Below, piece after piece: positions 4,617-61,812 of a stretch of 64,000 bases of DNA. This DNA is from Oscillospiraceae bacterium (GTDB lineage: Bacteria > Bacillota > Clostridia > Oscillospirales > UBA929). The stretch lies in contig JAIRUE010000112.1 of assembly GCA_031254575.1 (NCBI GenBank), forward strand, positions 3,811-67,810. Direction: 5' to 3'. The position numbers and the translations under genes are program-made. The notes under the pieces were generated by a model that was not told the DNA's origin, ran no database searches, and saw nothing but the letters and a program-made list of their open reading frames with translations. The number at the start of each line of letters is the position of its first letter. The stretch's first letter is position 1.

Positions 4617-7292
4617 CTACATCCGCCCGATAATCAACCGCACCTTATATCCCCACGGGTCGGTGTAGACGTCGAAATAATTGCAGTATACGCGCGCGTC
4701 GGAGAGCGGCATCATCTCGCCGATAGATGGGACGTACACCCCCGTTAAGGCCGAGGCAACCGGCACCTCGTCGCCCTTAAGCGTCACAGACCTGTTGCCG
4801 TTGAAATCCTCCCTCGTCAGTCCGTCGTACCGGATACAGTCCACAAGGCCTGTGACGACGCCCCCGTCGCCGCTGAGGGCGTTGCCCGACGCCAGTCCTA
4901 TGACAGCCCCCTTGCGCGGGGGGGTGAACGAATTGCAAAGGAACCATTCCGAGACGCCGCCTCCGGTGGTGGAAACGCCCGCTACGGTGTAGGAGTACTG
5001 TTCGCCGGACATTGAGGAGCCGCCCTCTTCTTTGCTGTCGGCATAGCCGTAGGCGTACGCGTCGCCGGTCACGTCGTTGAGAACAATAGCGGTCACATAT
5101 CCCGCGGATCCTGTTTCGGCGTGGATGACCTTAGCGGCGGGGACGCGGCCCATAGGGATGTCGGAGAGCGACAGGCGCACGGCGCGCCCCGCGCTGCCCA
5201 CCTGCTCGTAAACGGTACACCACGGCGCGAGCGGGACGGAACCAAGCCTTTTCGCGGTGACGTTGAGATCGCCCCTGCCGCCGCTCTGCGGCTCGAACGG
5301 CGTAAGATAGATCCTGTCGCCGGAGGAGCCTTGAAAATGCCCCACCCAGCCCGTCATCAGCGCGTACGGGCCTGCCGGCTCGCCGCTCAGCGTCAGCGGA
5401 GTCCAGCCGACGAGGACGCCGCTGTTATCCGCCGTGACAAGGCCGATAGTGGTTCCGGCAACCTCACCGGGACCACGCACGTCGGCGATCCGCCACCCGG
5501 ATGCTCCCGTGTCGGGGATCAGCAGGAAAACACAACGCTGTCCGCTGAACTGGGGCATCTTTGCCGTGGCTTCGGGCAGCAGTTCAAATGTCCTGCCCAT
5601 CATGGTGAGAGTGGAGGGCGCCGCGGGGCTGGGCTTGGGATCGGTGTAGTATCCTGAAACGCGCATGCTGTACGCCTCCACGATGCCCGCGCTTTCATAA
5701 AACATCAGGACGTCCCATCTCTCGAGCATATCCCGCTCGGCCGGAAAACCGTTTTTGTAGAGGACCGCGTCCTCGGCGGTCTTGCCGAACGCGCCGGTGA
5801 GCGGGTCGACGCCTTTCACGGGCTGCTTTTCCAGCACCGCGAGTTTGTAGCTGCCGGAACCGCGCGTCAGGGAACGGTAAATATACTGGAGGGTTTTGTT
5901 TTCGTCGTAGGCCAGCAGGAATATTTCGCCGGTGCGGATGTTCTCCCAGACGTCGTCAAACTCGTCCTCCGTCTCCCCCCAAACCGGGAGCTTTTTGGAG
6001 ATGGGGATGAATCCGCCCTTATCGTCAAATAATCCGTTGGACTGTATTCCGGTGACGGTAAGGGAGGCGTATGTGTAGGAGCGGGAGGGGGTAAAGCTGA
6101 CGGCGTACCGTTCGCGGTCGACCAAAAGCCGTCCCCAGCGGCCGCACAGCGCGGCGTCGATCGTCCCCCTGACGGGATAGCGCGCCCCGTCCGGGCCGGC
6201 GGCATAGGTCTGCCCGCCCGACGTCAGCATCCTCAGCACGGTGTTGTACGGCGTGCCGATTTGATTCTCTTTACTGTCGCGCACGATATAGAGCAGCGCG
6301 TTCCCCCGGTAGGCCAGCGTGACGGGTTCCTCCTCCCAGAAGTCGCCCGCCTTGTCATAAGCGCTGCTGGAGCCGCCCCAGTCCCACACCTTAAGCGACG
6401 AGGCCACCGGTATAAACGCGCCGCCCTTGAGCGAGAGGCCGTCCGCCTGGTTCTTCATGACGGTGACCTGCCTGTAGGATACCGTTTGGTCAAGCGCGAC
6501 CGAGAGGATATTATTCCCCTTATCGGCCATCATGGACGCCAGCCTGCCCTTATAGGACTCGTCCAGCGTGCCGCGGTAGGTATAGGTTTTGTCACCGTGG
6601 AAAATCTCGGTGACCCCGCCGTCCGTTTCAAAGACGAGGACGGTTTCAATAGGCTCCGCCTTAAAGGCTTTTTCCATAAAAGTCACGCCGTCGCCGTCCC
6701 TGATTTCGGCAAAGAGGAAGTTATAAATAAGCCTGGCGGCCTCCCCGCGCGTCATCTTATGGTCCGCCCCGAAAGACATGCCCCTGCTGGTGCCCAGCGC
6801 CTCCGCCTTGGCGATATAGCTGTACGGCCAGTTGAGGCCGACATGCTCGTCCTTGTAGCCCAGCAGTTTCATCAGCACGGTGATGAGCTGCCCGTACAGC
6901 ATGGGGTCGTTGGGATGGAACAGCCCGTCGGTGCTGCCGACCATGACGGGGGGCTGATCGTTTATACGCGAGGTGGCGGCGTTGATCCACCTGTGCGCCC
7001 AGTGACTGGCGAGCACGTCGGGGAAGCGCACCGTGCCGCCGTAGACAGAAACGTCGAACGTACCGGAGAGCCGCACGCCGATGACTGCCAGATCGGCGCG
7101 GGTAAACAGCCGGTCCGGGGAATAGTTGGAGCCGCCGGTGCCGCTGACGATCTTGAGCCGGTACAAAAGCTCCGCCGCCTGCCGCGTCGCGGCGTCGGGG
7201 ATGTCGGTAAACGGCCCGGCCGCGCCGGCGGGGGGTATGCCGAAGATGGGGAGCAGGCAGAGTATAAGCAAAAAGCTGACAAACCGTTTCAT
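4617..7292 (-). CDS. SLH (S-layer homology) domain cell-wall protein, 891 aa, remainder unassigned
   Basis: A signal peptide (MKRFVSFLLILCLLPIFGIPPAGAA) is followed by three SLH-like modules (FTDIPD..., FPDVLASHWAHRWINAA, MTRGEAARLIYNFL). The ATG lies 9 nt after the permease stop, and the RBS TAGGAGG contains that stop codon. Confidence 0.8.
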   Translation of the reverse strand: MKRFVSFLLILCLLPIFGIPPAGAAGPFTDIPDAATRQAAELLYRLKIVSGTGGSNYSPDRLFTRADLAVIGVRLSGTFDVSVYGGTVRFPDVLASHWAHRWINAATSRINDQPPVMVGSTDGLFHPNDPMLYGQLITVLMKLLGYKDEHVGLNWPYSYIAKAEALGTSRGMSFGADHKMTRGEAARLIYNFLFAEIRDGDGVTFMEKAFKAEPIETVLVFETDGGVTEIFHGDKTYTYRGTLDESYKGRLASMMADKGNNILSVALDQTVSYRQVTVMKNQADGLSLKGGAFIPVASSLKVWDWGGSSSAYDKAGDFWEEEPVTLAYRGNALLYIVRDSKENQIGTPYNTVLRMLTSGGQTYAAGPDGARYPVRGTIDAALCGRWGRLLVDRERYAVSFTPSRSYTYASLTVTGIQSNGLFDDKGGFIPISKKLPVWGETEDEFDDVWENIRTGEIFLLAYDENKTLQYIYRSLTRGSGSYKLAVLEKQPVKGVDPLTGAFGKTAEDAVLYKNGFPAERDMLERWDVLMFYESAGIVEAYSMRVSGYYTDPKPSPAAPSTLTMMGRTFELLPEATAKMPQFSGQRCVFLLIPDTGASGWRIADVRGPGEVAGTTIGLVTADNSGVLVGWTPLTLSGEPAGPYALMTGWVGHFQGSSGDRIYLTPFEPQSGGRGDLNVTAKRLGSVPLAPWCTVYEQVGSAGRAVRLSLSDIPMGRVPAAKVIHAETGSAGYVTAIVLNDVTGDAYAYGYADSKEEGGSSMSGEQYSYTVAGVSTTGGGVSEWFLCNSFTPPRKGAVIGLASGNALSGDGGVVTGLVDCIRYDGLTREDFNGNRSVTLKGDEVPVASALTGVYVPSIGEMMPLSDARVYCNYFDVYTDPWGYKVRLIIGRM

Positions 7293-24869: not shown

Positions 24870-26249
24870 TCACACCGCCGGCCTTGTAATATCCTTTATC
24901 CATTTCCTTTGGCGGAAGCGCCAGAGGGAGGCGGCGAGTTTCCAGATCTCCTCGGCGGTCATCACGCAGAAGACCGCAAACGCTCCCCAATGAAGCCCCA
25001 GGCCCGCGAGCGCGCCCAACGGCACCGCCAGACAGTACATCGATATGAGGTCGATCAGCATTGCCGCCCTGGCGTCGCCGCCGCCGCGCAAAATGCCGAC
25101 GATAATGGTGAAGTTGACGGCGCGCGCCGGGGCGGCCAGACAGGATATAAACAGCATTGCCCGCGCCAGCGCCTCCGTTTCCGCGCTTTCGGCGAAGAGC
25201 GGTATCAGATGGGGCGACAGCACAAACACCGTCAGCGCGGCTAAAAGGCCGCCCGCAAACACACCGGCCGCCAATGCCCGGCGGAGCATGGCCGCTCCCA
25301 TTTCAGCCATCCCCTCCGTACGGCCCGACCCCAGTTCCTTGCAAATCACGACCGCGATGGCGTGGCCCACGCCGAAATACAGCGCGGAAGCAAGGCGCTC
25401 GATATTGAGCGCGATGGTATAGGCGGCGACGCCCGACGCGCCGGACGGCATATAGGCGAGGATGACGGGGAACAGCGAGAAACCGAGGCCCCACAGCGCC
25501 TCGTTGGCGATGATAGGCCCGCAGATACGCAGATAGTCCGCCCGCAGCGTCCGCCCGGGCCGCAGCATCAAACGCGGTTTAAGGGTGAAACGGGTGTCGC
25601 GCAGGACAAAAAAGACGGTGACGGCGATCTCCAGCACGCGGGCCAGCAGCGTGGCAATCGCCGCGCCGCGTACGCCGAGGGCCGGGAAGGGGCCTTTGCC
25701 AAAAATGAGCAGATAATTGAGAACCGTATTGACCGACATCGACAGGATAAGCACATTCATCCCCATGCGCGGGTTTTCCATCGCGCGCTGCGCGCCTAAA
25801 AGCAACATGGTCACGCCGTTCAGCACCATCGACGGCGCGACAATGCGCGCATACTCCGCCGCCACCGCCGCGAGGGCGGGGTCGGATGTGGTGAGCGACA
25901 TCATTTGCAGGGGAAACAGTGTGATAACGCCGCACACCAGCAGCGTGGACGCGCCGCCCAGCATGATCCCGATGCCGAGCAGCCGGTTGACGGCGTCTTT
26001 GTCGCCCCGTCCCCAATACTGGCCCACAAGGACCGTCATCCCGCTCTGTATGCCGAATATGAACAGCGATATGACAAAAAACCATGCGTTGGCCAGCGTC
26101 AGCGCCGCAAGCTCCGTTTCGCCCAGGGTGCCCACCATGAAGGTGTCGAACAGCCCCAGCGACTGGTTGATAAGGTTTTGCAGCATGATGGGCACAGCCA
26201 GCGTGAGCAGGCGGCGCGTCAGCCCTGTCATAGGCCGGTCCGTTTTCAT
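24870..26249 (-). CDS. MATE family efflux transporter
   Basis: The product is 12-TM-like, beginning LLTLAVPIMLQNLINQSLGLFDTFMVGTLGETELAALTLAN. ATG 26249 overlaps the stop of the upstream small ORF (ATGA). The track uses GTG 26255. Confidence 0.9.
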   Translation of the reverse strand: MKTDRPMTGLTRRLLTLAVPIMLQNLINQSLGLFDTFMVGTLGETELAALTLANAWFFVISLFIFGIQSGMTVLVGQYWGRGDKDAVNRLLGIGIMLGGASTLLVCGVITLFPLQMMSLTTSDPALAAVAAEYARIVAPSMVLNGVTMLLLGAQRAMENPRMGMNVLILSMSVNTVLNYLLIFGKGPFPALGVRGAAIATLLARVLEIAVTVFFVLRDTRFTLKPRLMLRPGRTLRADYLRICGPIIANEALWGLGFSLFPVILAYMPSGASGVAAYTIALNIERLASALYFGVGHAIAVVICKELGSGRTEGMAEMGAAMLRRALAAGVFAGGLLAALTVFVLSPHLIPLFAESAETEALARAMLFISCLAAPARAVNFTIIVGILRGGGDARAAMLIDLISMYCLAVPLGALAGLGLHWGAFAVFCVMTAEEIWKLAASLWRFRQRKWIKDITRPAV

Positions 26250-26413
26250 AAACACCTTGTCCTTGGCAGTTTATGCAGGCGTGTGGCGAGCACGGGAACG
26301 AGCACGACCGCGAGACCCAGTTCCAGCAGGCCGTTAACGCTCAATACGAAGCCTGTGATATTCTGGAATGTGCGGCGGTCCTTTTCATATTGGGATACAG
26401 GATTGCCTCGCAT
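26246..26413 (-). CDS. Small (55 aa) single-TM hypothetical protein, translationally coupled to the MATE gene
   Basis: Below the track cutoff. AAGGAGGGATTATT precedes the ATG. The product is MRGNPVSQYEKDRRTFQNITGFVLSVNGLLELGLAVVLVPVLATRLHKLPRTRCL, and its stop overlaps the MATE ATG. Confidence 0.5.
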   Translation of the reverse strand: MRGNPVSQYEKDRRTFQNITGFVLSVNGLLELGLAVVLVPVLATRLHKLPRTRCL

Positions 26414-26520
26414 AATAATCCCTCCTTGCCGCTGTCACCGAGCTGCTCCATCGCCCGAGCAACGCCTAGCGTACGCTTGGCGCGGATGGAGCGTGACACG
26501 ACTGAATATAGCGCGGCGGG
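26414..26520 (-). promoter_or_regulatory. Copy B of a conserved modular leader/repeat element (short central hairpin)
   Basis: Blocks 26421-26460 and 26479-26514 are ~88% identical to 27171-27210 and 27311-27346. GCUCCAUC pairs with GAUGGAGC around the palindrome CGCCAAGCGUACGCUAGGCG. The element ends at the SD. Confidence 0.5.
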
Positions 26521-27162
26521 TCAGCCCTGTCCGTTCAGAATTTTCTTCAGAGGAACGCAAACGCCGGCGCCTACGATCCCGGCAATCGCGGCTTCCAGCA
26601 GGCCGTTGGTGGCGGCGACTACGGCGAGAGCGCCCAGCAGGGCGCTGTACGCAATGTCGTTCGCGGAAGCGTATGGCTGGCCGAAAAACACATAAATACC
26701 CCCAAGGACGAGGACCGTCGCGGTCAGACCGCCCAGGACGCCGCTCAGGGCGCAGGAAATCACCGGGCGGATTTTCCGTTTTTCAAACAGTTTATACAGC
26801 GCGCCGGCAGCAACGCCGACCATAACGCGCGGAACAAAGCAGATGACAAGGCTCCAGCCGTTGCCCCGCAGGTCGCCGACCGAATAGAACGGGGTGAATA
26901 CGAACGCCAGCGGGGAAGGCGGCATGAAAGTCCAGACAATGAAACTGAACAGGCCGGAAAAGAATCCCATGGCCGCGCCGGATCTCGTGCCTAGCAGGAT
27001 CGCCGCGATAATGACCGGGACGTACATAAGGGTTGCGACCATCGGGCCGATAGGGATGGAGCCGAGCGGGGTAAAGCAGAAGACGGCCTCTATGGCGAGC
27101 AGGATGGAAAACTGCGTCAGGGAACGGATACGGCTGCTTTGGGATAAAGTGTCGCGTCGCAT
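26521..27162 (-). CDS. ECF transporter S-component-like membrane protein (substrate unknown; PanT-like by context)
   Basis: 213 aa from ATG 27162, after AAGGAGGA. It is a 6-TM small integral membrane protein (FSILLAIEAVFCFTPLGSIPIGPMVATLMYVPVIIAAILLG...). It lies immediately downstream of coaX. Confidence 0.6.
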   Translation of the reverse strand: MRRDTLSQSSRIRSLTQFSILLAIEAVFCFTPLGSIPIGPMVATLMYVPVIIAAILLGTRSGAAMGFFSGLFSFIVWTFMPPSPLAFVFTPFYSVGDLRGNGWSLVICFVPRVMVGVAAGALYKLFEKRKIRPVISCALSGVLGGLTATVLVLGGIYVFFGQPYASANDIAYSALLGALAVVAATNGLLEAAIAGIVGAGVCVPLKKILNGQG

Positions 27163-27350
27163 GGAAAATTCCTCCTTGCTGCTGCTCCCGAGCAGCTCCA
27201 TCGCCCGAGCAGGTCAGATAAAACGCGGAAGCGTTTGCCAAACCGAAGAAAGCCGTGAAACGGCGGACTGTTTGGCATAAGCATGAGCGGTTTATCTGAC
27301 CGCCCGCGAGGGCGCGGATGGAGCGTGACACGATTGGATACAGCGCACAT
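27163..27350 (-). promoter_or_regulatory. Copy A of the conserved modular leader/repeat element (long central hairpin)
   Basis: It has the same flanks as copy B. The centre is replaced by CGCCCUCGCGGGCG plus a ~90-nt hairpin (GGUCAGAUAAA...UUUAUCUGACC). A GCUGCUCGGGAGCAGC hairpin lies directly before the SD. Confidence 0.5.
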
Positions 27351-27380
27351 ATTTTATTTATGTATAGAACCTCGCGGTCC

Positions 27381-28148
27381 TTATACAACATTTTTCGCGT
27401 AAATCAAACGCAGACCTTCCAGCAATAGATACGGCTCGTGGCGCACCTCGCGGCGCATGTGCGGAACAATGCGCTCGCTGAGGCCGCCGGTGGCGAACAC
27501 GGTGAACGGCAATCCCGTTTCCTCCTCGGCGCGCGCGGTCATGCCGTCGAGCATGGACGCCCAGCCGAAGACCGCGCCGGAGCGCATACTGTCGACGGTA
27601 TTGCTGCCGACGACATGGGACGGCGTGTCGAAGCTGATTTTGGGCAACTGCGCGGCCTTTGCGCTGAGCGCCTCAAGCGAGGTGACGAGGCCGGGCATAA
27701 TGGCCCCGCCGAGAAAACGCCCCCTGGCGTCGATGACGCTCATCGTCGTGGCGGTGCCCATGTCAAAGATAATAACGGGTCCTCTGACCGCCGCCAGCGC
27801 CGCGACGGCGTTGCAGACCATATCGCTGCCCAGCTGCGCGGGGTTGTCGATGAGGATGTCCAGACCCGTTTTCACGCCGGGGCCGACCATAAGCGGTTCG
27901 CCGCCGGTCATCAGGGCGATGCCGCCGCACAGCGCGCCGGTCGCGGGCCAGGCCACGGAACTGACGATCGAGCCGGTGATCTGCTCCGGTTTCAAGCCGT
28001 GCAGGGACAGTATGTCACGCAGCAGCACCGCCCATTCGTCGGCGGTACGCCAGTGCGCGGTGTGCGCACGCGCCGTGCAGACGAGCCGCGCGCCGTCGAA
28101 AACGCCCGCCAAAATATTGGTATTGCCCATATCCAGCGCCAGCAGCAT
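27381..28148 (-). CDS. coaX: Type III pantothenate kinase
   Basis: The N-terminus is MLLALDMGNTNILAGVF. Further matches are IIFDMGTATT and SGAVFGWASMLDG. Confidence 0.9.
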   Translation of the reverse strand: MLLALDMGNTNILAGVFDGARLVCTARAHTAHWRTADEWAVLLRDILSLHGLKPEQITGSIVSSVAWPATGALCGGIALMTGGEPLMVGPGVKTGLDILIDNPAQLGSDMVCNAVAALAAVRGPVIIFDMGTATTMSVIDARGRFLGGAIMPGLVTSLEALSAKAAQLPKISFDTPSHVVGSNTVDSMRSGAVFGWASMLDGMTARAEEETGLPFTVFATGGLSERIVPHMRREVRHEPYLLLEGLRLIYAKNVV

Positions 28149-36663: not shown

Positions 36664-36686
36664 GAGTATGTCTCCTTACTGTGTAG

Positions 36687-36729
36687 GGGACGCCCCCGCG
36701 CCAAGCGTACGCTTGGTTATGGGCGTCCC
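36687..36729 (-). repeat. Nested palindromic hairpin in the rpsG-fusA spacer (member of an intergenic repeat family)
   Basis: The outer 9-bp stem GGGACGCCC/GGGCGTCCC encloses CGCGCCAAGCGTACGCTTGG. The same core occurs at 26463-26482, with a variant at 60369-60391. Confidence 0.7.
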
Positions 36730-37270: not shown

Positions 37271-37366
37271 AATTGAGAATTGACAATTGGGAATTGACAA
37301 TAGACAATTGCGTTTGAGAGGCCCTTTCCGGATAATTGTCAACTGTGCATTGTCAATTGTCAATTA
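37271..37366. repeat. Inverted arrays of 7-bp tandem repeats (AATTGAC x6 / TCAATTG x5) in the rpsL-rpsG spacer
   Basis: 37271-37312 reads AATTGAG AATTGAC AATTGGG AATTGAC AATAGAC AATTGCG. 37332-37366 reads ATAATTG TCAACTG TGCATTG TCAATTG TCAATTA. A GC-rich 19-nt centre separates them. Confidence 0.85.
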
Positions 37367-37820: not shown

Positions 37821-37909
37821 TGGCGGAGGGAGTGGGAGTCGAACCCACGGTCCCTTGCGGGAACACCGGTTTTCAAGACCGGCTCCTTAGACCACTCGGA
37901 CATCCCTCC
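37821..37909 (-). tRNA. tRNA-Ser (anticodon UGA), CCA encoded
   Basis: Hand-folded. The acceptor stem is GGAGGGA/TCCCTCC and the D arm is TCC-GAGTGGTCTAA-GGA. The anticodon stem CCGGT/ACCGG carries the loop CTTGAAA. There is a long variable arm (TCCC-GCAA-GGGA), a T arm GTGGG-TTCGACT-CCCAC, discriminator G and CCA. Confidence 0.9.
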
Positions 37910-56362: not shown

Positions 56363-57478
56363 TCATCGCCCGTTGATGGCTTCATAAAATTCTCGCGGCA
56401 TGTCATAGGAGTCATAGGTATATGAGTTTCCTTTATAGGTTGCTGTCAGCCCTGTGCAACCGTAGAACGCTTCGCGACCAACGCTCGTCACGCTGTCGGG
56501 GATAGTTACGCTTGTCAGCCCTGTGCACTTGTAGAACGCCCCGTCACCAATGCTCGTGACGCTGTTGGGGATGGACACGCTTGTCAGCCCCGTGCAATAG
56601 CAGAACGCAGTGTTGCCAATCTCAGTCACACTATTGGGAATGGTCACGCTCGTCAGCCCTGTGCACATGTAGAACGCCCAGTCACCGATGCTCGTCACGC
56701 TGTCGGGAATGCTGTATGTACCTTTTTTACCCGGAGGATATAGCGTAAGGGTTGTTTTTCCCTTATTGAATAACACTCCGTCAATATCGGTATAGGCTTT
56801 ATTGCCCGAAGTCACAGTTATTCTCGTCAGCCCTGTGCAATAGTAAAACGCCAATTCACCGATGCTCGTCACGCTGTCGGGGATAGTCACGCTTGTCAGC
56901 CCCGTGCAACCGCCGAACGCCTTGTCACCGATGCTCGTCACGCTGTCGGGGATAGTCACGCTTGTCAGCCCCGTGCAACCGCCGAACGCCCCGGAACCAA
57001 TGTTCGTGACGCTGTTGGGAATATAAATCTCTATAATAGGGCGCTCATTATAAATGCTCTCATAAAAAACACTCTCATCAATATCATAATAGCCCTTATC
57101 TTTCCCTATTCTCTTCACCGGCTCGCCCTCAATTTTTTCCGGTATCCGCACTTTGAGCGCGTTGCCTGTATATTTTGTAATTACAATTCCTCCCAACGCC
57201 GTGTCGTAGTCATACTCAAAATTGCTCACGGGAGTTTCGGGCAAATCGGCGGGCGGCGGGTTGTATTCACCAGCGGGGGTTTCAGAAGTATCAGAGGGTG
57301 AAAGATCGTTTCCGCTGCCGGGAGTTTCGGAAACGCCGGAAGGTGAAGGATTGCCCCCGCCGCCGGAAGTTTCCGATAAACCGGACGGCGACGGGCCGCC
57401 GCCCCCGCCTCCGCCGTCGCATCCGGCGGCTAAAACAAAGATGGCGGCCAACGCCAAACTCAGGGCACGTTTTCTCAT
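56363..57478 (-). CDS. BspA-type leucine-rich-repeat (LRR_5) lipoprotein
   Basis: ATG 57478 follows AAAAGGGG. The lipobox is LAAGC. A repetitive G/P/S/E/T linker is followed by at least 7 repeats of ~23 aa (IPDSVTSIGxxAFxxCTGLTSVT). Confidence 0.85.
   Translation of the reverse strand: MRKRALSLALAAIFVLAAGCDGGGGGGGPSPSGLSETSGGGGNPSPSGVSETPGSGNDLSPSDTSETPAGEYNPPPADLPETPVSNFEYDYDTALGGIVITKYTGNALKVRIPEKIEGEPVKRIGKDKGYYDIDESVFYESIYNERPIIEIYIPNSVTNIGSGAFGGCTGLTSVTIPDSVTSIGDKAFGGCTGLTSVTIPDSVTSIGELAFYYCTGLTRITVTSGNKAYTDIDGVLFNKGKTTLTLYPPGKKGTYSIPDSVTSIGDWAFYMCTGLTSVTIPNSVTEIGNTAFCYCTGLTSVSIPNSVTSIGDGAFYKCTGLTSVTIPDSVTSVGREAFYGCTGLTATYKGNSYTYDSYDMPREFYEAINGR
56857..56994. repeat. Near-perfect 69-bp tandem duplication inside the LRR gene
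   Basis: 56857-56920 is identical to 56926-56989 (64/64 nt). This equals one 23-aa LRR unit. Confidence 0.9.
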
Positions 57479-58919: not shown

Positions 58920-60329
58920 TCAGGGCATCATCAGCTCGATCCAGCCGGTAAAGCCTTTTTCGTTGGGCACATAGGGGTAGCTGATCAGCAGGACGTCGTC
59001 AATATCATGCCCGGTGACAAAATCGGCCAGCTTGCATTTGGGCAGGTCTTCCCGGTTGTATTTGCGGTAGTCAAAGACGTAGATATTTTCATAGTGCGCG
59101 AGCAGGAACGGGATGAGGGCGTTGCCGTAGGATTCCTTGACGACGGCGATCGACTTGCCGTTTTTGTTGTCGGTGCTGATATGGATAAGCGCCTGGTCGC
59201 CGTTTGTGAAGCAGACGTATTTGTTGGAGGCGCCGTTGGGCAGATTTGTGTTGACCACGGGGATGCTCCAGCCGTTTTTCATGGAGGCGTCGCCGTAAGC
59301 CGTGGCGGTATATTCGCCGGGCGGCACGAAATATTCCACCGTATCGGGGTGATCCGCCGCGGCGGCGGCCTGCGGGTGCTGCCTGACCTCGCGGTAAAAG
59401 GAGCCGATGAAGCCCTCATATTCCCCCCGCTCCCACGTCTCTATGTCGGACGGCTCATATCCCAGCGTGTCGCAGAAGCCGGTGTACGCCCAATACGCGC
59501 CGCGCGCCGTCCAGTGATGGTCTGTGCGGTAGAAAAGGTACTCGTCCTTGTGGGCGGCGATCGGGGTAAAGCCGTCCACGGCGGCGATGCGGGGGTCATA
59601 CAGGGCGTAGAGGTCCTCGATCATCTGCCGCTGGTCGCGCGAACTTTGGGTATAGGCCGAGGGCGCGTAGAACGGGAAGCTGTTGGGCACCACCATCGAG
59701 ACGACGCGGCGGTCGGGCAGCGCGTCCTGCAAACGCCCCAGCATGTTCGCGTAGATTTCAAGACGGGCCTTGTTGGTATAGGACATGTGCATGATCCGGT
59801 CGCCGATGATGAGGTAGCCGTTGGTTTCCGCGTCCACCACCGGCTCCGGCGTCGGCGAGGGGGAAGGTTCGGGCGAAGGCTCCGGCTCCGGCTCCGGCGA
59901 CGGGGACGGGGACGGAACGGGTGACGGGGACGGCGACGGCCTGGGAGACGGCGACGGGGACGGCGTGTCCGGGCCGGGGGAGGGAAGCTGGCCTAATATA
60001 TCCTCCAGCGACTCGCCGCCGCCGAGGTCAAACTCACCGCCGATCACGGCGCTGCCGTCTTTAAGCGGGATATAGAGCCACTGCTCGAAACGCCGCGACG
60101 CGCTCATCAGCGCGTCCCGCCCGGGGAACTGATCGGCGTAGTATTCGTCAAAGTCGCCCGTCCACCGCCCCCCGAACAACGCGGATAGGGAAAAGGGCGG
60201 TTTTTGCGCGAGCGGGCGGTTTTCGTCCTCCGATACGGCGGCGTCCCCGTCCCGGACGGAATACAGCCCCAGCCCCGCCAGCGGCAGGAAGAAAAACAGC
60301 GTTATGACGACGGCCCAGCGCCTGTCCAT
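58920..60329 (-). CDS. DHHW family protein (MBOAT partner) with long Pro/Ser/Glu linker
   Basis: It has an N-terminal TM segment, FYRTDHHWTARGAYWAY and an internal ~55-aa SPSPSP/EPEP linker. It lies downstream of the MBOAT gene. Confidence 0.8.
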   Translation of the reverse strand: MDRRWAVVITLFFFLPLAGLGLYSVRDGDAAVSEDENRPLAQKPPFSLSALFGGRWTGDFDEYYADQFPGRDALMSASRRFEQWLYIPLKDGSAVIGGEFDLGGGESLEDILGQLPSPGPDTPSPSPSPRPSPSPSPVPSPSPSPEPEPEPSPEPSPSPTPEPVVDAETNGYLIIGDRIMHMSYTNKARLEIYANMLGRLQDALPDRRVVSMVVPNSFPFYAPSAYTQSSRDQRQMIEDLYALYDPRIAAVDGFTPIAAHKDEYLFYRTDHHWTARGAYWAYTGFCDTLGYEPSDIETWERGEYEGFIGSFYREVRQHPQAAAAADHPDTVEYFVPPGEYTATAYGDASMKNGWSIPVVNTNLPNGASNKYVCFTNGDQALIHISTDNKNGKSIAVVKESYGNALIPFLLAHYENIYVFDYRKYNREDLPKCKLADFVTGHDIDDVLLISYPYVPNEKGFTGWIELMMP

Positions 60330-60348: not shown

Positions 60349-60391
60349 CTTCGGTTTGTCAAACGCTTCCGCGCCAAGCGTGCGCCGGGCG
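60349..60391 (-). repeat. Intergenic repeat-family member between the MBOAT and DHHW genes
   Basis: 60349-60372 is the reverse complement of 27225-27248 (23/24 identical). The adjacent CCGCGCCAAGCGTGCGCCGGGCG is a variant of the 26463/36697 palindrome. Confidence 0.7.
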
Positions 60392-60411
60392 TTGTCCGGC
60401 CATGGGGCGGC

Positions 60412-61812
60412 TCAAAATCTAAAGTATAAAAATGGATTATAACTCTGCCCCGCCAGCGCCGCGGTGCAGAGCAGCAATGTCAGCGTATTGTAGCATAGGG
60501 AAAGCGCGGGCTGCAACAGGGGGGGTCTCTTTTGAACAAAAGAGACCAGCGCCTTGGGCAGCGGGCTGGCCGCCAGCGCGCACAGCAGCAGCAGCGGCAG
60601 CCGTCCGACCCACAGCGAGAGCGTCTCGGTGCCGGAAAACCCGTGGGCGCCGAACAAGCTGGTCATAAACGCGCCCAGCCGCCCCATGTCGGTGAAGTAG
60701 AACAGGACCCAGCCCAGCACGACGGCGGGAAAGGTATAGACCGCCGGGATAATTTTCGCGGCTTTTTCAGGGGCGCGTTTCAGGACAAACCGCTCAAACG
60801 CCAGCCATAAAAAGTAATACAGCCCCCACAGCACAAAGTTCCACGACGCGCCGTGCCACAGCCCGGTGAGGAACCATGTGACAAAGAGGCTCAATACGAC
60901 GCGCCGGCGGTTTCCGCCCAGCGGGATGTAAACGTAATCGCGGAAAAAGGAGCCGAGCGAAATGTGCCAGCGCCGCCAGAAGCCGGTGACGGAAGAGGCA
61001 AAATAAGGGTAGCGGAAATTTTCGCCGTACTGGAAGCCGAACATCCGCCCCAGCCCGACGGCCATATCGGAGTAGCCCGAAAAGTCGAAATATATCTGCG
61101 CGGTATAGAGCAGGATACCCAGCCACGCGTCGGCGGCGGGAAGGGTATGCAGCGGGCCGTCGAGCAAACCCGAGGCGACCGCGCCGGCTGTGTTGGCGAG
61201 CAGGACTTTCTTGCCAAGCCCGCAGCAAAAGCGCGTGACGCCGGCGGCGCAGCCCTCCCAGGTAAACGGGCGGTCATGGAGCTGCTTTTCCAGTTCGGAA
61301 TAGCGCAGGATCGGGCCCGCGATGAGCTGCGGGAACAGGGAGACAAACAGCAAAAAGTCAAGGTATGAGCGCTGTACGCCCACCTTGTCCCGGTATACGT
61401 CGAGGGTATAGGAGAGGGTCTGGAAGGTATAAAAGCTGATGCCGATCGGCAGCGCGATGCCCGGCAGCGCCGGCGAGTAGCGGAACAGCAGGCCGAAGTT
61501 TTCCAGGAAGAAATCGAGGTATTTGAAAACACCCAGCAGCGAGAGGTTGAGGACGACCGAAACGATCAGGGCGATCCTTGCCATGCGCGCGGAGCCGACC
61601 CTCCGCGCCTTGCCGATGACCCGCCCGCAGGTATAGTCAAGCGTGGCGGAAAAGAGCAGCAGGACGACCCAGACAGGCTCGCCCCACGCGTAAAAAAAGA
61701 GCGACAGGACGGTGAGGACCGCGTTTTTGCCGCGCATACCGGGCATGAGGGCGTACAGCAGCATACAGGCGGGCAGGAACCCGTATAAAAAGAGCAGCGA
61801 GGAAAAAACCAA
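60412..61812 (-). CDS. MBOAT family O-acyltransferase (AlgI/DltB-like)
   Basis: 466 aa and polytopic, with FWRRWHISLGSFFRDYVYIPLGGNR...WHGASW (conserved His context). TTG start after GGGAGGA. Confidence 0.88.
   Translation of the reverse strand: MVFSSLLFLYGFLPACMLLYALMPGMRGKNAVLTVLSLFFYAWGEPVWVVLLLFSATLDYTCGRVIGKARRVGSARMARIALIVSVVLNLSLLGVFKYLDFFLENFGLLFRYSPALPGIALPIGISFYTFQTLSYTLDVYRDKVGVQRSYLDFLLFVSLFPQLIAGPILRYSELEKQLHDRPFTWEGCAAGVTRFCCGLGKKVLLANTAGAVASGLLDGPLHTLPAADAWLGILLYTAQIYFDFSGYSDMAVGLGRMFGFQYGENFRYPYFASSVTGFWRRWHISLGSFFRDYVYIPLGGNRRRVVLSLFVTWFLTGLWHGASWNFVLWGLYYFLWLAFERFVLKRAPEKAAKIIPAVYTFPAVVLGWVLFYFTDMGRLGAFMTSLFGAHGFSGTETLSLWVGRLPLLLLCALAASPLPKALVSFVQKRPPLLQPALSLCYNTLTLLLCTAALAGQSYNPFLYFRF

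Follow-up and report, generated by a model that had tools for sequence, protein, structure and literature searches.

Two leader elements that share blocks of sequence lie on the same strand, each beside a start codon: one precedes an ECF-S transporter gene, the other a small ORF followed by a MATE efflux gene. The question raised by this locus is whether the pair forms a riboswitch-like leader, as the original prediction held on the strength of conserved junctions and variable helices, or whether another kind of element can take on that appearance. The reading we favour, at a probability of about 75%, is that of a shared short leader of two neighbouring panT genes, each loop of which holds a REP/MITE-like palindromic repeat. 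Within the window (the whole 64-kb stretch of DNA analysed) the minus-strand order is coaX, which is the gene upstream of copy A, then copy A itself, the 213-aa ECF-S gene, copy B, a 55-codon ORF and the MATE gene.

27381–28148, minus strand: coaX, type III pantothenate kinase (Pfam PF03309, 2.9e-58; NCBIfam NF009855)
27361–27387, minus strand: hairpin across the coaX stop codon, part of a conserved module upstream of panT
27346–27163, minus strand: copy A leader, 5′ of the ECF-S gene
26521–27162, minus strand: intact ECF-S gene, 213 aa, PanT-like (Pfam PF12822, 1.7e-19)
26514–26414, minus strand: copy B leader, 5′ of the 55-codon ORF
26246–26413, minus strand: 55-codon ORF, an in-frame internal-deletion remnant of a PanT ECF-S gene of the type found at the related locus L014
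24870–26249, minus strand: MATE efflux gene (Pfam PF01554, 1.5e-47)

The duplication itself is real. The copies had been estimated to share ~76 nt at ~88% identity; measured directly, the 5′ block (27311–27346 versus 26479–26514) is identical at 33/36 positions and the 3′ block (27167–27211 versus 26417–26461) at 39/45, giving 72/81 over both. Two words taken from the blocks, a 23-mer and a 17-mer, are each present exactly two times in the window, where shuffles predict 0.00 and 0.42 occurrences. The two leaders also sit at a like distance from their start codons, as described, with the SD motif AAGGAGG 8 nt before the ATG in copy A and 7 nt before it in copy B. Similarity sets in at exactly GCGCU, continues beyond the ATG for eight codons (19/24 nt) and is then gone (3/15); copy B begins 6 nt past the stop codon of panT, the 213-aa ECF-S gene. 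These comparisons use block matches and per-sequence folds in place of MAFFT, which misaligns the copies because of an 88-nt insertion in copy A.

Related loci, fetched via homologues of the ECF-S, MATE and coaX proteins, reveal what the outer ends of the two leaders are. Ten of these loci (L001, L002, L003, L016, L017, L018, L019, L021, L023 and L024) carry only a short leader of ~45 nt, laid out as GCGCUGYAUCC, a loop of 4–14 nt, GGARCAGCAGCAAGGAGG, a further 7–8 nt and the start codon, which is ATG at all but L016 (GTG). At all ten, RCAGCAGCAAGGAGG follows the 4–14-nt loop without any insert. At a further locus, L022, coaX and the ECF-S gene overlap, which leaves no intergenic leader. The short leader forms P0, a hairpin of 8 bp that has one bulged A (GCUGY-A-UCC/GGA-RCAGC) and is followed by AGC and then by a strong SD, AAGGAGG.

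27336–27346, minus strand: copy A P0 5′ arm (GCGCUGUAUCC), kept in 11/11 aligned leaders
27171–27188, minus strand: copy A P0 3′ arm (GGAGCAGC), AGC and SD AAGGAGG (27177–27171)
26504–26514, minus strand: copy B P0 5′ arm (GCGCUAUAUUC, two changes)
26421–26438, minus strand: copy B P0 3′ arm (GUGACAGC), GGC and SD AAGGAGG (26427–26421)

In an alignment of 11 sequences, with the inserts excised from three, the P0 helix is 96.6% paired. At three pairs both partners have changed, as in GUUGC/GCAAC (L018) and UCUG/CAGA (L002). The covariation score was reached in 0/500 shuffles and the count of both-side-changed pairs in 3/500, and slid registers fall short of P0 pairing. Given this short leader with its covarying P0 in relatives, copies A and B have at their outer ends (GCGCUGUAUCC ... 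AGCAGCAGCAAGGAGG) the ancestral conserved leader hairpin, and a short P0–SD 5′ leader is common to the coaX-linked PanT genes of this Oscillospiraceae clade. Covariation across relatives' intergenic regions, proposed as a check, was found for P0; the insert is absent from 10/11 leader-bearing related loci. The copy B leader looks degraded, with one P0 pair broken. Its two 5′-arm changes happen to form a weak -10-like TATATT. Upstream of copy A, the hairpin across the coaX stop codon is followed by an A/T-rich, -10-like stretch; folding finds an analogous hairpin, with differing inner stems, at nine loci (per-sequence folds were used, the MAFFT alignment of these hairpins being out of register).

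The two leaders had been taken to precede unrelated genes, and this does not hold. The intact 213-aa ECF-S protein matches 4RFS_S (4e-12) and also 6ZG3_C, both of them solved PanT structures (PMC7755397), and is 75–76% identical to the coaX-linked ECF-S proteins of L001 and L002. At L014, a close relative (coaX 81%, GPR protease 91% and MATE 77% identical), the ECF-S protein likewise matches 4RFS and 6ZG3; the L014 type and the 213-aa type are 25–28% identical and represent different subfamilies. Residues 14–52 of the 55-codon ORF correspond to residues 156–194 of the L014 ECF-S protein, its C terminus (56% identity, E = 1e-11), and the first 13 residues resemble the N termini of other ECF-S proteins. 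Relative to an L014-type panT, ~142 internal codons have been lost in frame, which makes the ORF a relic of its neighbour's transporter family. A 67-aa ORF that follows the ECF-S gene in L002 shows no resemblance to it. The locus consists of two tandem panT genes, each with its own leader: the upstream one is intact, and the downstream one, an orthologue of the only panT of L014, has decayed. Since copy A heads an intact panT and copy B a panT remnant, the pair does not amount to two independent gene associations.

The MATE gene can be placed in the same way. In L014 and L016 the operon runs coaX–leader–ECF-S–MATE without a second leader, and MATE orthologues at 77–78% identity come directly after the ECF-S gene, across a 5-nt spacer in L014 and a 4-nt overlap in L016. 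In the window, the MATE ATG (26249–26247) overlaps the TGA of the 55-codon ORF (26248–26246) as ATGA, an overlap likewise seen in L016. The link between MATE gene and leader is accidental, a product of operon history. With two panT types from different subfamilies, a foreign allele gained at the shared leader is a better account than simple tandem duplication. A second panT allele may have arisen through duplication, or entered through recombination, at the conserved leader, with the stretch from the leader through the first ~13 codons as the shared sequence, after which the resident allele would have decayed. The remnant ORF could owe its survival to a coupling of MATE translation to it, the in-frame stub seemingly serving the gene behind it as a translational coupler.

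What sets copies A and B apart from the short leaders is the content of the P0 loop.

27189–27335, minus strand: copy A insert, a 147-nt palindrome in the P0 loop, missing from ten empty-site leaders
26439–26503, minus strand: copy B insert, a 65-nt palindrome in the P0 loop, with closing helix P1 formed by 26492–26485 and 26452–26445

In copy A, P1 pairs 27324–27317 with 27202–27195 and encloses a nested hairpin of 88 nt (27300–27213), which is the extra hairpin of ~90 nt already noted from the sequence. The closing helix proposed there is borne out too, since GCUCCAUC pairs with GAUGGAGC when either copy is folded to minimum energy; the inner palindrome of copy B is CCAAGCGUACGCUAGG. The inner 65–147 nt are a palindrome that was inserted at the apical loop of P0 and makes the leader one long rod, and the blocks first read as conserved junctions are inside this P0-loop insertion.

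Among the 11 leader-bearing related loci, L014 is the only one to carry an insert, a diverged one of ~90 nt at the same point of the P0 loop, with an unrelated inner hairpin. Its 5′ block GTGTCGCGCTTTATACGCGGC is 16/21 identical to that of the window, and its 3′ end GGTGAAGCAGC is similar to the window 3′ block; overall, the insert blocks are ~90% identical between A and B and ~75% against L014. As the nhmmer match of the L014 insert to that of the window is weak by sequence alone (E = 0.56), its homology rests on position and blocks. In the L014 equivalent of P1, GCUUUAU/GUGAAGC, pairing has come through two single changes and a double one, a retention that would also be expected of a selected RNA helix. 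Several routes could have placed an insert in both leaders of the window: duplication of an insert-bearing leader, gene conversion and a second insertion into the same loop are all possible. Had an insert-free allele from a relative simply been integrated by a single crossover, only one leader would bear an insert.

By folding, the insert-bearing leaders are rods and not aptamers. The minimum-energy folds of copies A and B and of L014 are each one imperfect rod (P0 > P1 > inner hairpin or hairpins), with no multi-helix junction in any of them and with the SD unpaired or nearly so in all three. Copy A reaches -83.4 kcal/mol (z = -6.0 versus shuffles) and the L014 leader -56.9 kcal/mol (z = -3.2); copy B, at -40.3 kcal/mol (z = -1.7), is not better than shuffles. 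No U-tract that would mark a terminator or attenuator comes after the rod. The sole terminator-like match is a 5-bp stem tipping the nested hairpin of copy A, and shuffles give as much.

Database searches find neither a known RNA family nor a wide distribution. Against Rfam 15, the whole window yields one tRNA only at gathering score, and the region 26350–27420 has 0 matches at E ≤ 10. That search covers mepA (the guanidine-IV motif, which had been singled out as the class to try on account of the MATE gene), ykkC, FMN, TPP, THF, ZTP, fluoride and the pan motif, so that the scan advised in the original prediction was carried out and no known class emerged. The L014 leader gives miRNA-precursor noise alone, far below gathering, and the 60.35-kb copy described below gives nothing or miRNA noise. 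The exact 5′-block 19-mer GTGTCACGCTCCATCCGCG has four matches in 185,579 species genomes (without the window's own), about the number expected by chance and in unrelated phyla; 0/4 are accompanied by a 3′ block, and the longest-running match lies inside an ORF. A 21-base pattern from the 3′ block, CTCGGGCGATGGAGCNGCTCGG, is found on four contigs of the JGI metagenomes (without the window's own genome), all of which read as coding sequence without a 5′ block.

Within the window, the two further repeats announced at 36.7 kb and 60.4 kb were both found.

60354–60417, plus strand: third, diverged insert copy, between the minus-strand MBOAT and DHHW genes
60412–61812, minus strand: MBOAT gene
58920–60329, minus strand: DHHW gene
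36686–36729: a different hairpin, between rpsG and fusA (gene names inferred from ORF sizes and positions only)

Aligned locally within the window, insert B has its best match outside itself in the third copy (60356–60413; score 54 over a background of ~30), with 48 identities over 61 columns. Single-sequence nhmmer matches this copy to the insert at E = 0.005 and to leader B as a whole at 1.5e-4. Joined to its 5′ side is a 25-nt piece (60349–60373) that is 24/25 identical to part of the nested hairpin of copy A. Lying on the plus strand amid the co-directional minus-strand MBOAT and DHHW genes, it is antisense to the operon. At 36.7 kb, the loop of an otherwise different hairpin holds the 18-nt core CCGCGCCAAGCGTACGCT (36696–36713), as in copy B. 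A profile search found no further insert copies in the 64-kb window, and dispersal there amounts to three copies at two independent loci, one of them inverted, plus the 18-nt fragment; with 64 kb searched, the term dispersed repeat rests on those two loci and that one fragment.

Taken together, the insert behaves like an intergenic repeat of REP/MITE type. Orthologous sites are filled (A, B and L014) or empty (ten loci), the copies are mosaic and nested, one recurs inverted in the window, and the insert-bearing leaders form hairpins whose stability runs from z = -6.0 in copy A through -3.2 in L014 to -1.7 in copy B. The original prediction had offered such an insertion as its alternative; this stands for the inner insert and not for the outer ends, which are the ancestral P0 leader. 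Two better-defined classes of element were set aside. A classical MITE would end in terminal inverted repeats with a target-site duplication on either side, whereas reading by eye against the empty sites gives no such duplication at the boundaries of the insert. An integron attC arrangement, a gene flanked by two palindromes, does not suit repeats that include the SD and first codons, and the attC cores RYYYAAC and GTTRRRY are absent from A, B and the 60.35-kb copy on both strands. REPs are mobilised by RAYT Y1 transposases, and palindromic elements derived from IS200/IS605 exist; among those ORFs of the window that were scanned, neither a RAYT gene nor another transposase was identified. The insert could represent an undescribed palindromic-element family of uncultured Oscillospiraceae that inserts into hairpin loops, a likelier identity than a cis-regulatory RNA. 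Candidate cases of loop insertion are the P0 loop, the loop of the rpsG–fusA hairpin and the element's own loop, and palindromic repeats may preferentially land in such loops. The rod-like hairpin would be neutral or, if active, probably a structure of general kind that stabilises or helps process the mRNA at its 5′ end or between cistrons while the SD stays free, and not a ligand sensor.

A neighbouring explanation, which we consider unlikely, makes the repeat origin secondary and has the hairpin selected for a role without a ligand, as a target of RNase III or of a protein or as an mRNA stabiliser tuning panT and MATE. A rod-like duplex immediately 5′ of a free SD would suit such a role, as would the excess stability of copy A over shuffles (z = -6.0) and the pairing kept in L014; P0 is also probably at the 5′ end of the transcript, because a -10-like box lies 7–10 nt upstream. 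Yet most relatives manage without the insert, and its inner parts are unrelated between copies. Copy B, moreover, folds no better than shuffles (z = -1.7), has a mismatched P0 and heads a decayed gene.

Very unlikely, in our view, is an origin without any mobile element, in which P0 grew by template switching during replication (quasipalindrome extension) together with gene conversion between short palindromes. The similarities at 60.35 kb and 36.7 kb would then be recombination footprints. Such a process accounts well for palindromes nested as P0 > P1 > inner hairpin > 88-nt hairpin, for pieces held in common as a mosaic, and for boundaries at which neither a target-site duplication nor the terminal inverted-repeat signature of a classical MITE is seen. 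It leaves unexplained a unit of ~60 nt that recurs, in the same internal order and inverted, at an unlinked locus.

We give little credence to the broader proposal that the insert-bearing leader or the P0 module is a lineage-specific cis-regulatory RNA sensing pantothenate, CoA or a protein factor; were it true, PanT uptake would be the process controlled and the 60.35-kb copy a dead relative. The least probable reading is the riboswitch-like regulator proper, in which P1 and its conserved flanks would bind a metabolite (guanidine, pantothenate and CoA are examples) and thereby govern how the ECF-S and MATE genes are translated: two sense-strand copies adjoin an SD, P1 pairing is kept in L014 by one compensatory change and the coaX–panT context would suit an as-yet-unknown pantothenate/CoA sensor, but Rfam has no match down to E = 10, the mepA motif included, the insert is absent from 10/11 orthologous leader-bearing loci that keep the same genes, the genome and metagenome collections hold no true matches, the fold is a single rod (-40 to -83 kcal/mol) without junction, terminator or SD sequestration, the third copy is antisense to its operon, and the second supposed target is itself a decayed member of the one transporter family. 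The insert-bearing leader fails every defining riboswitch feature that was tested, and the proposed riboswitch-like leader is not supported.

With the favoured reading of a short panT leader carrying a palindromic repeat, the locus serves chiefly as a caution. Same-strand copies adjoining an SD, with what appeared to be conserved junctions and variable helices, mimicked a riboswitch; the mimic is a single ancestral leader that was copied together with its gene and bears a palindromic repeat. The locus also illustrates how PanT S-components that are only 25–28% identical swap at one position behind a shared leader and ~13 N-terminal codons. Overall it is what gene gain and decay ordinarily leave behind, combined with a REP/MITE-like repeat, and opens no long-standing question.

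Comparison with known systems places the parts of the locus in different company. Guanidine-IV (mepA motif) and other riboswitches also lie 5′ of a transporter gene and beside the SD; the insert differs from them in having no covariance-model match and no kissing loop or junction, and in not being conserved in relatives, and the MATE gene is downstream here by an accident of operon history. The 5′-terminal stem-loops of the aprE and ermC leaders are mRNA stabilisers of Firmicutes. Like the leaders here, they place a hairpin at the 5′ end or close to it, with a strong free SD behind; in the leaders here that 5′ end is only predicted and a stabilising role putative. REP/BIME and MITE-like repeats are closer to the insert: they too are ~60–150 nt long, hairpin-forming and intergenic or intercistronic, occur in either orientation, are present or absent at orthologous sites and form nested and mosaic copies. 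The insert departs from them in that the P1 arms are its only defined terminal repeats, no target-site duplication was seen and its sequence matches no curated family; it is known from three copies and a fragment within 64 kb. For the genes, the parallel is tandem duplication or allele replacement that leaves a pseudogene relic. The two panT copies here differ from that pattern in coming from different subfamilies, and agree with it in having a leader for each gene copy, in the degradation of one copy by internal deletion and in relatives that carry a single gene at the same position.

The P0 element, an 8-bp ancestral hairpin of the short 5′ leader ahead of panT (ECF-S) genes, follows the pattern GCUGY-A-UCC / GGA-RCAGC and lies immediately upstream of the Shine–Dalgarno sequence AAGGAGG (alignment A4). 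In the same alignment, its conservation, with covariation, spans ECF-S genes that are merely 25–28% identical. These P0-led genes also have their first ~13 codons in common (consensus M-Q-x4-S-Q-x2-K-x-R). In copy A, the leader of the intact panT, P0 is preceded by a second hairpin at the end of coaX:

27336–27346 with 27181–27188, minus strand: P0 arms of the panT leader (copy A; window, alignment A4)
27361–27387, minus strand: hairpin overlapping the coaX stop codon, with counterparts at equivalent positions in relatives

The coaX-stop hairpin is kept in nine loci (the window, L001, L002, L003, L014, L016, L017, L018 and L021), its inner stems varying among them with compensating changes. 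On its 3′ side comes a −10-like box rich in A/T, with GCGCUG after it. The hairpin is found even in L003, where the upstream gene is not coaX, so it is part of the panT leader module, in which it may serve as terminator, operator or promoter element.

Palindromes also occur elsewhere in the window:

36686–36729: strong hairpin in the spacer separating two ORFs, presumably rpsG and fusA

On both strands this hairpin scores a z of roughly −3.5 to −4, and a palindrome, CCAAGCGTACGCTTGG, is nested inside its loop; the same palindrome occurs in copy B. A 32-nt inverted repeat at 37278–37365 consists of motifs resembling TTGACAAT, namely AATTGACAATTGGGAATTGACAATAGACAATT plus its partner, and a tRNA (37824–37909) lies about 460 nt away. 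Periodic direct repeats at 56435–57091 (69-nt unit spacing) and 509–1252 (units of about 275 nt; 0.5–1.25 kb) are probably repeat domains within coding sequence.

For insert B, the 65-nt palindrome in the P0 loop of copy B, L016 gave a weak palindromic match on both strands at 6721–6782 (nhmmer E 0.8–1.6), at the 3′ end of a second MATE gene in this relative. The whole-leader query matched L016 similarly weakly (E 0.64). The match to insert B is probably due to chance.

Copy B carries two substitutions, GCGCTGTATCC to GCGCTATATTC, that create a −10-like TATATT (window 26505–26533, minus strand); 17 nt upstream of it is CGGACA, giving a 9/12 match. Together these may form a new internal promoter for the MATE gene and the 55-codon remnant ORF preceding it. 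The remnant's TGA stop overlaps the MATE ATG as ATGA (26246–26249), suggesting that the in-frame stub has been kept for translational coupling.
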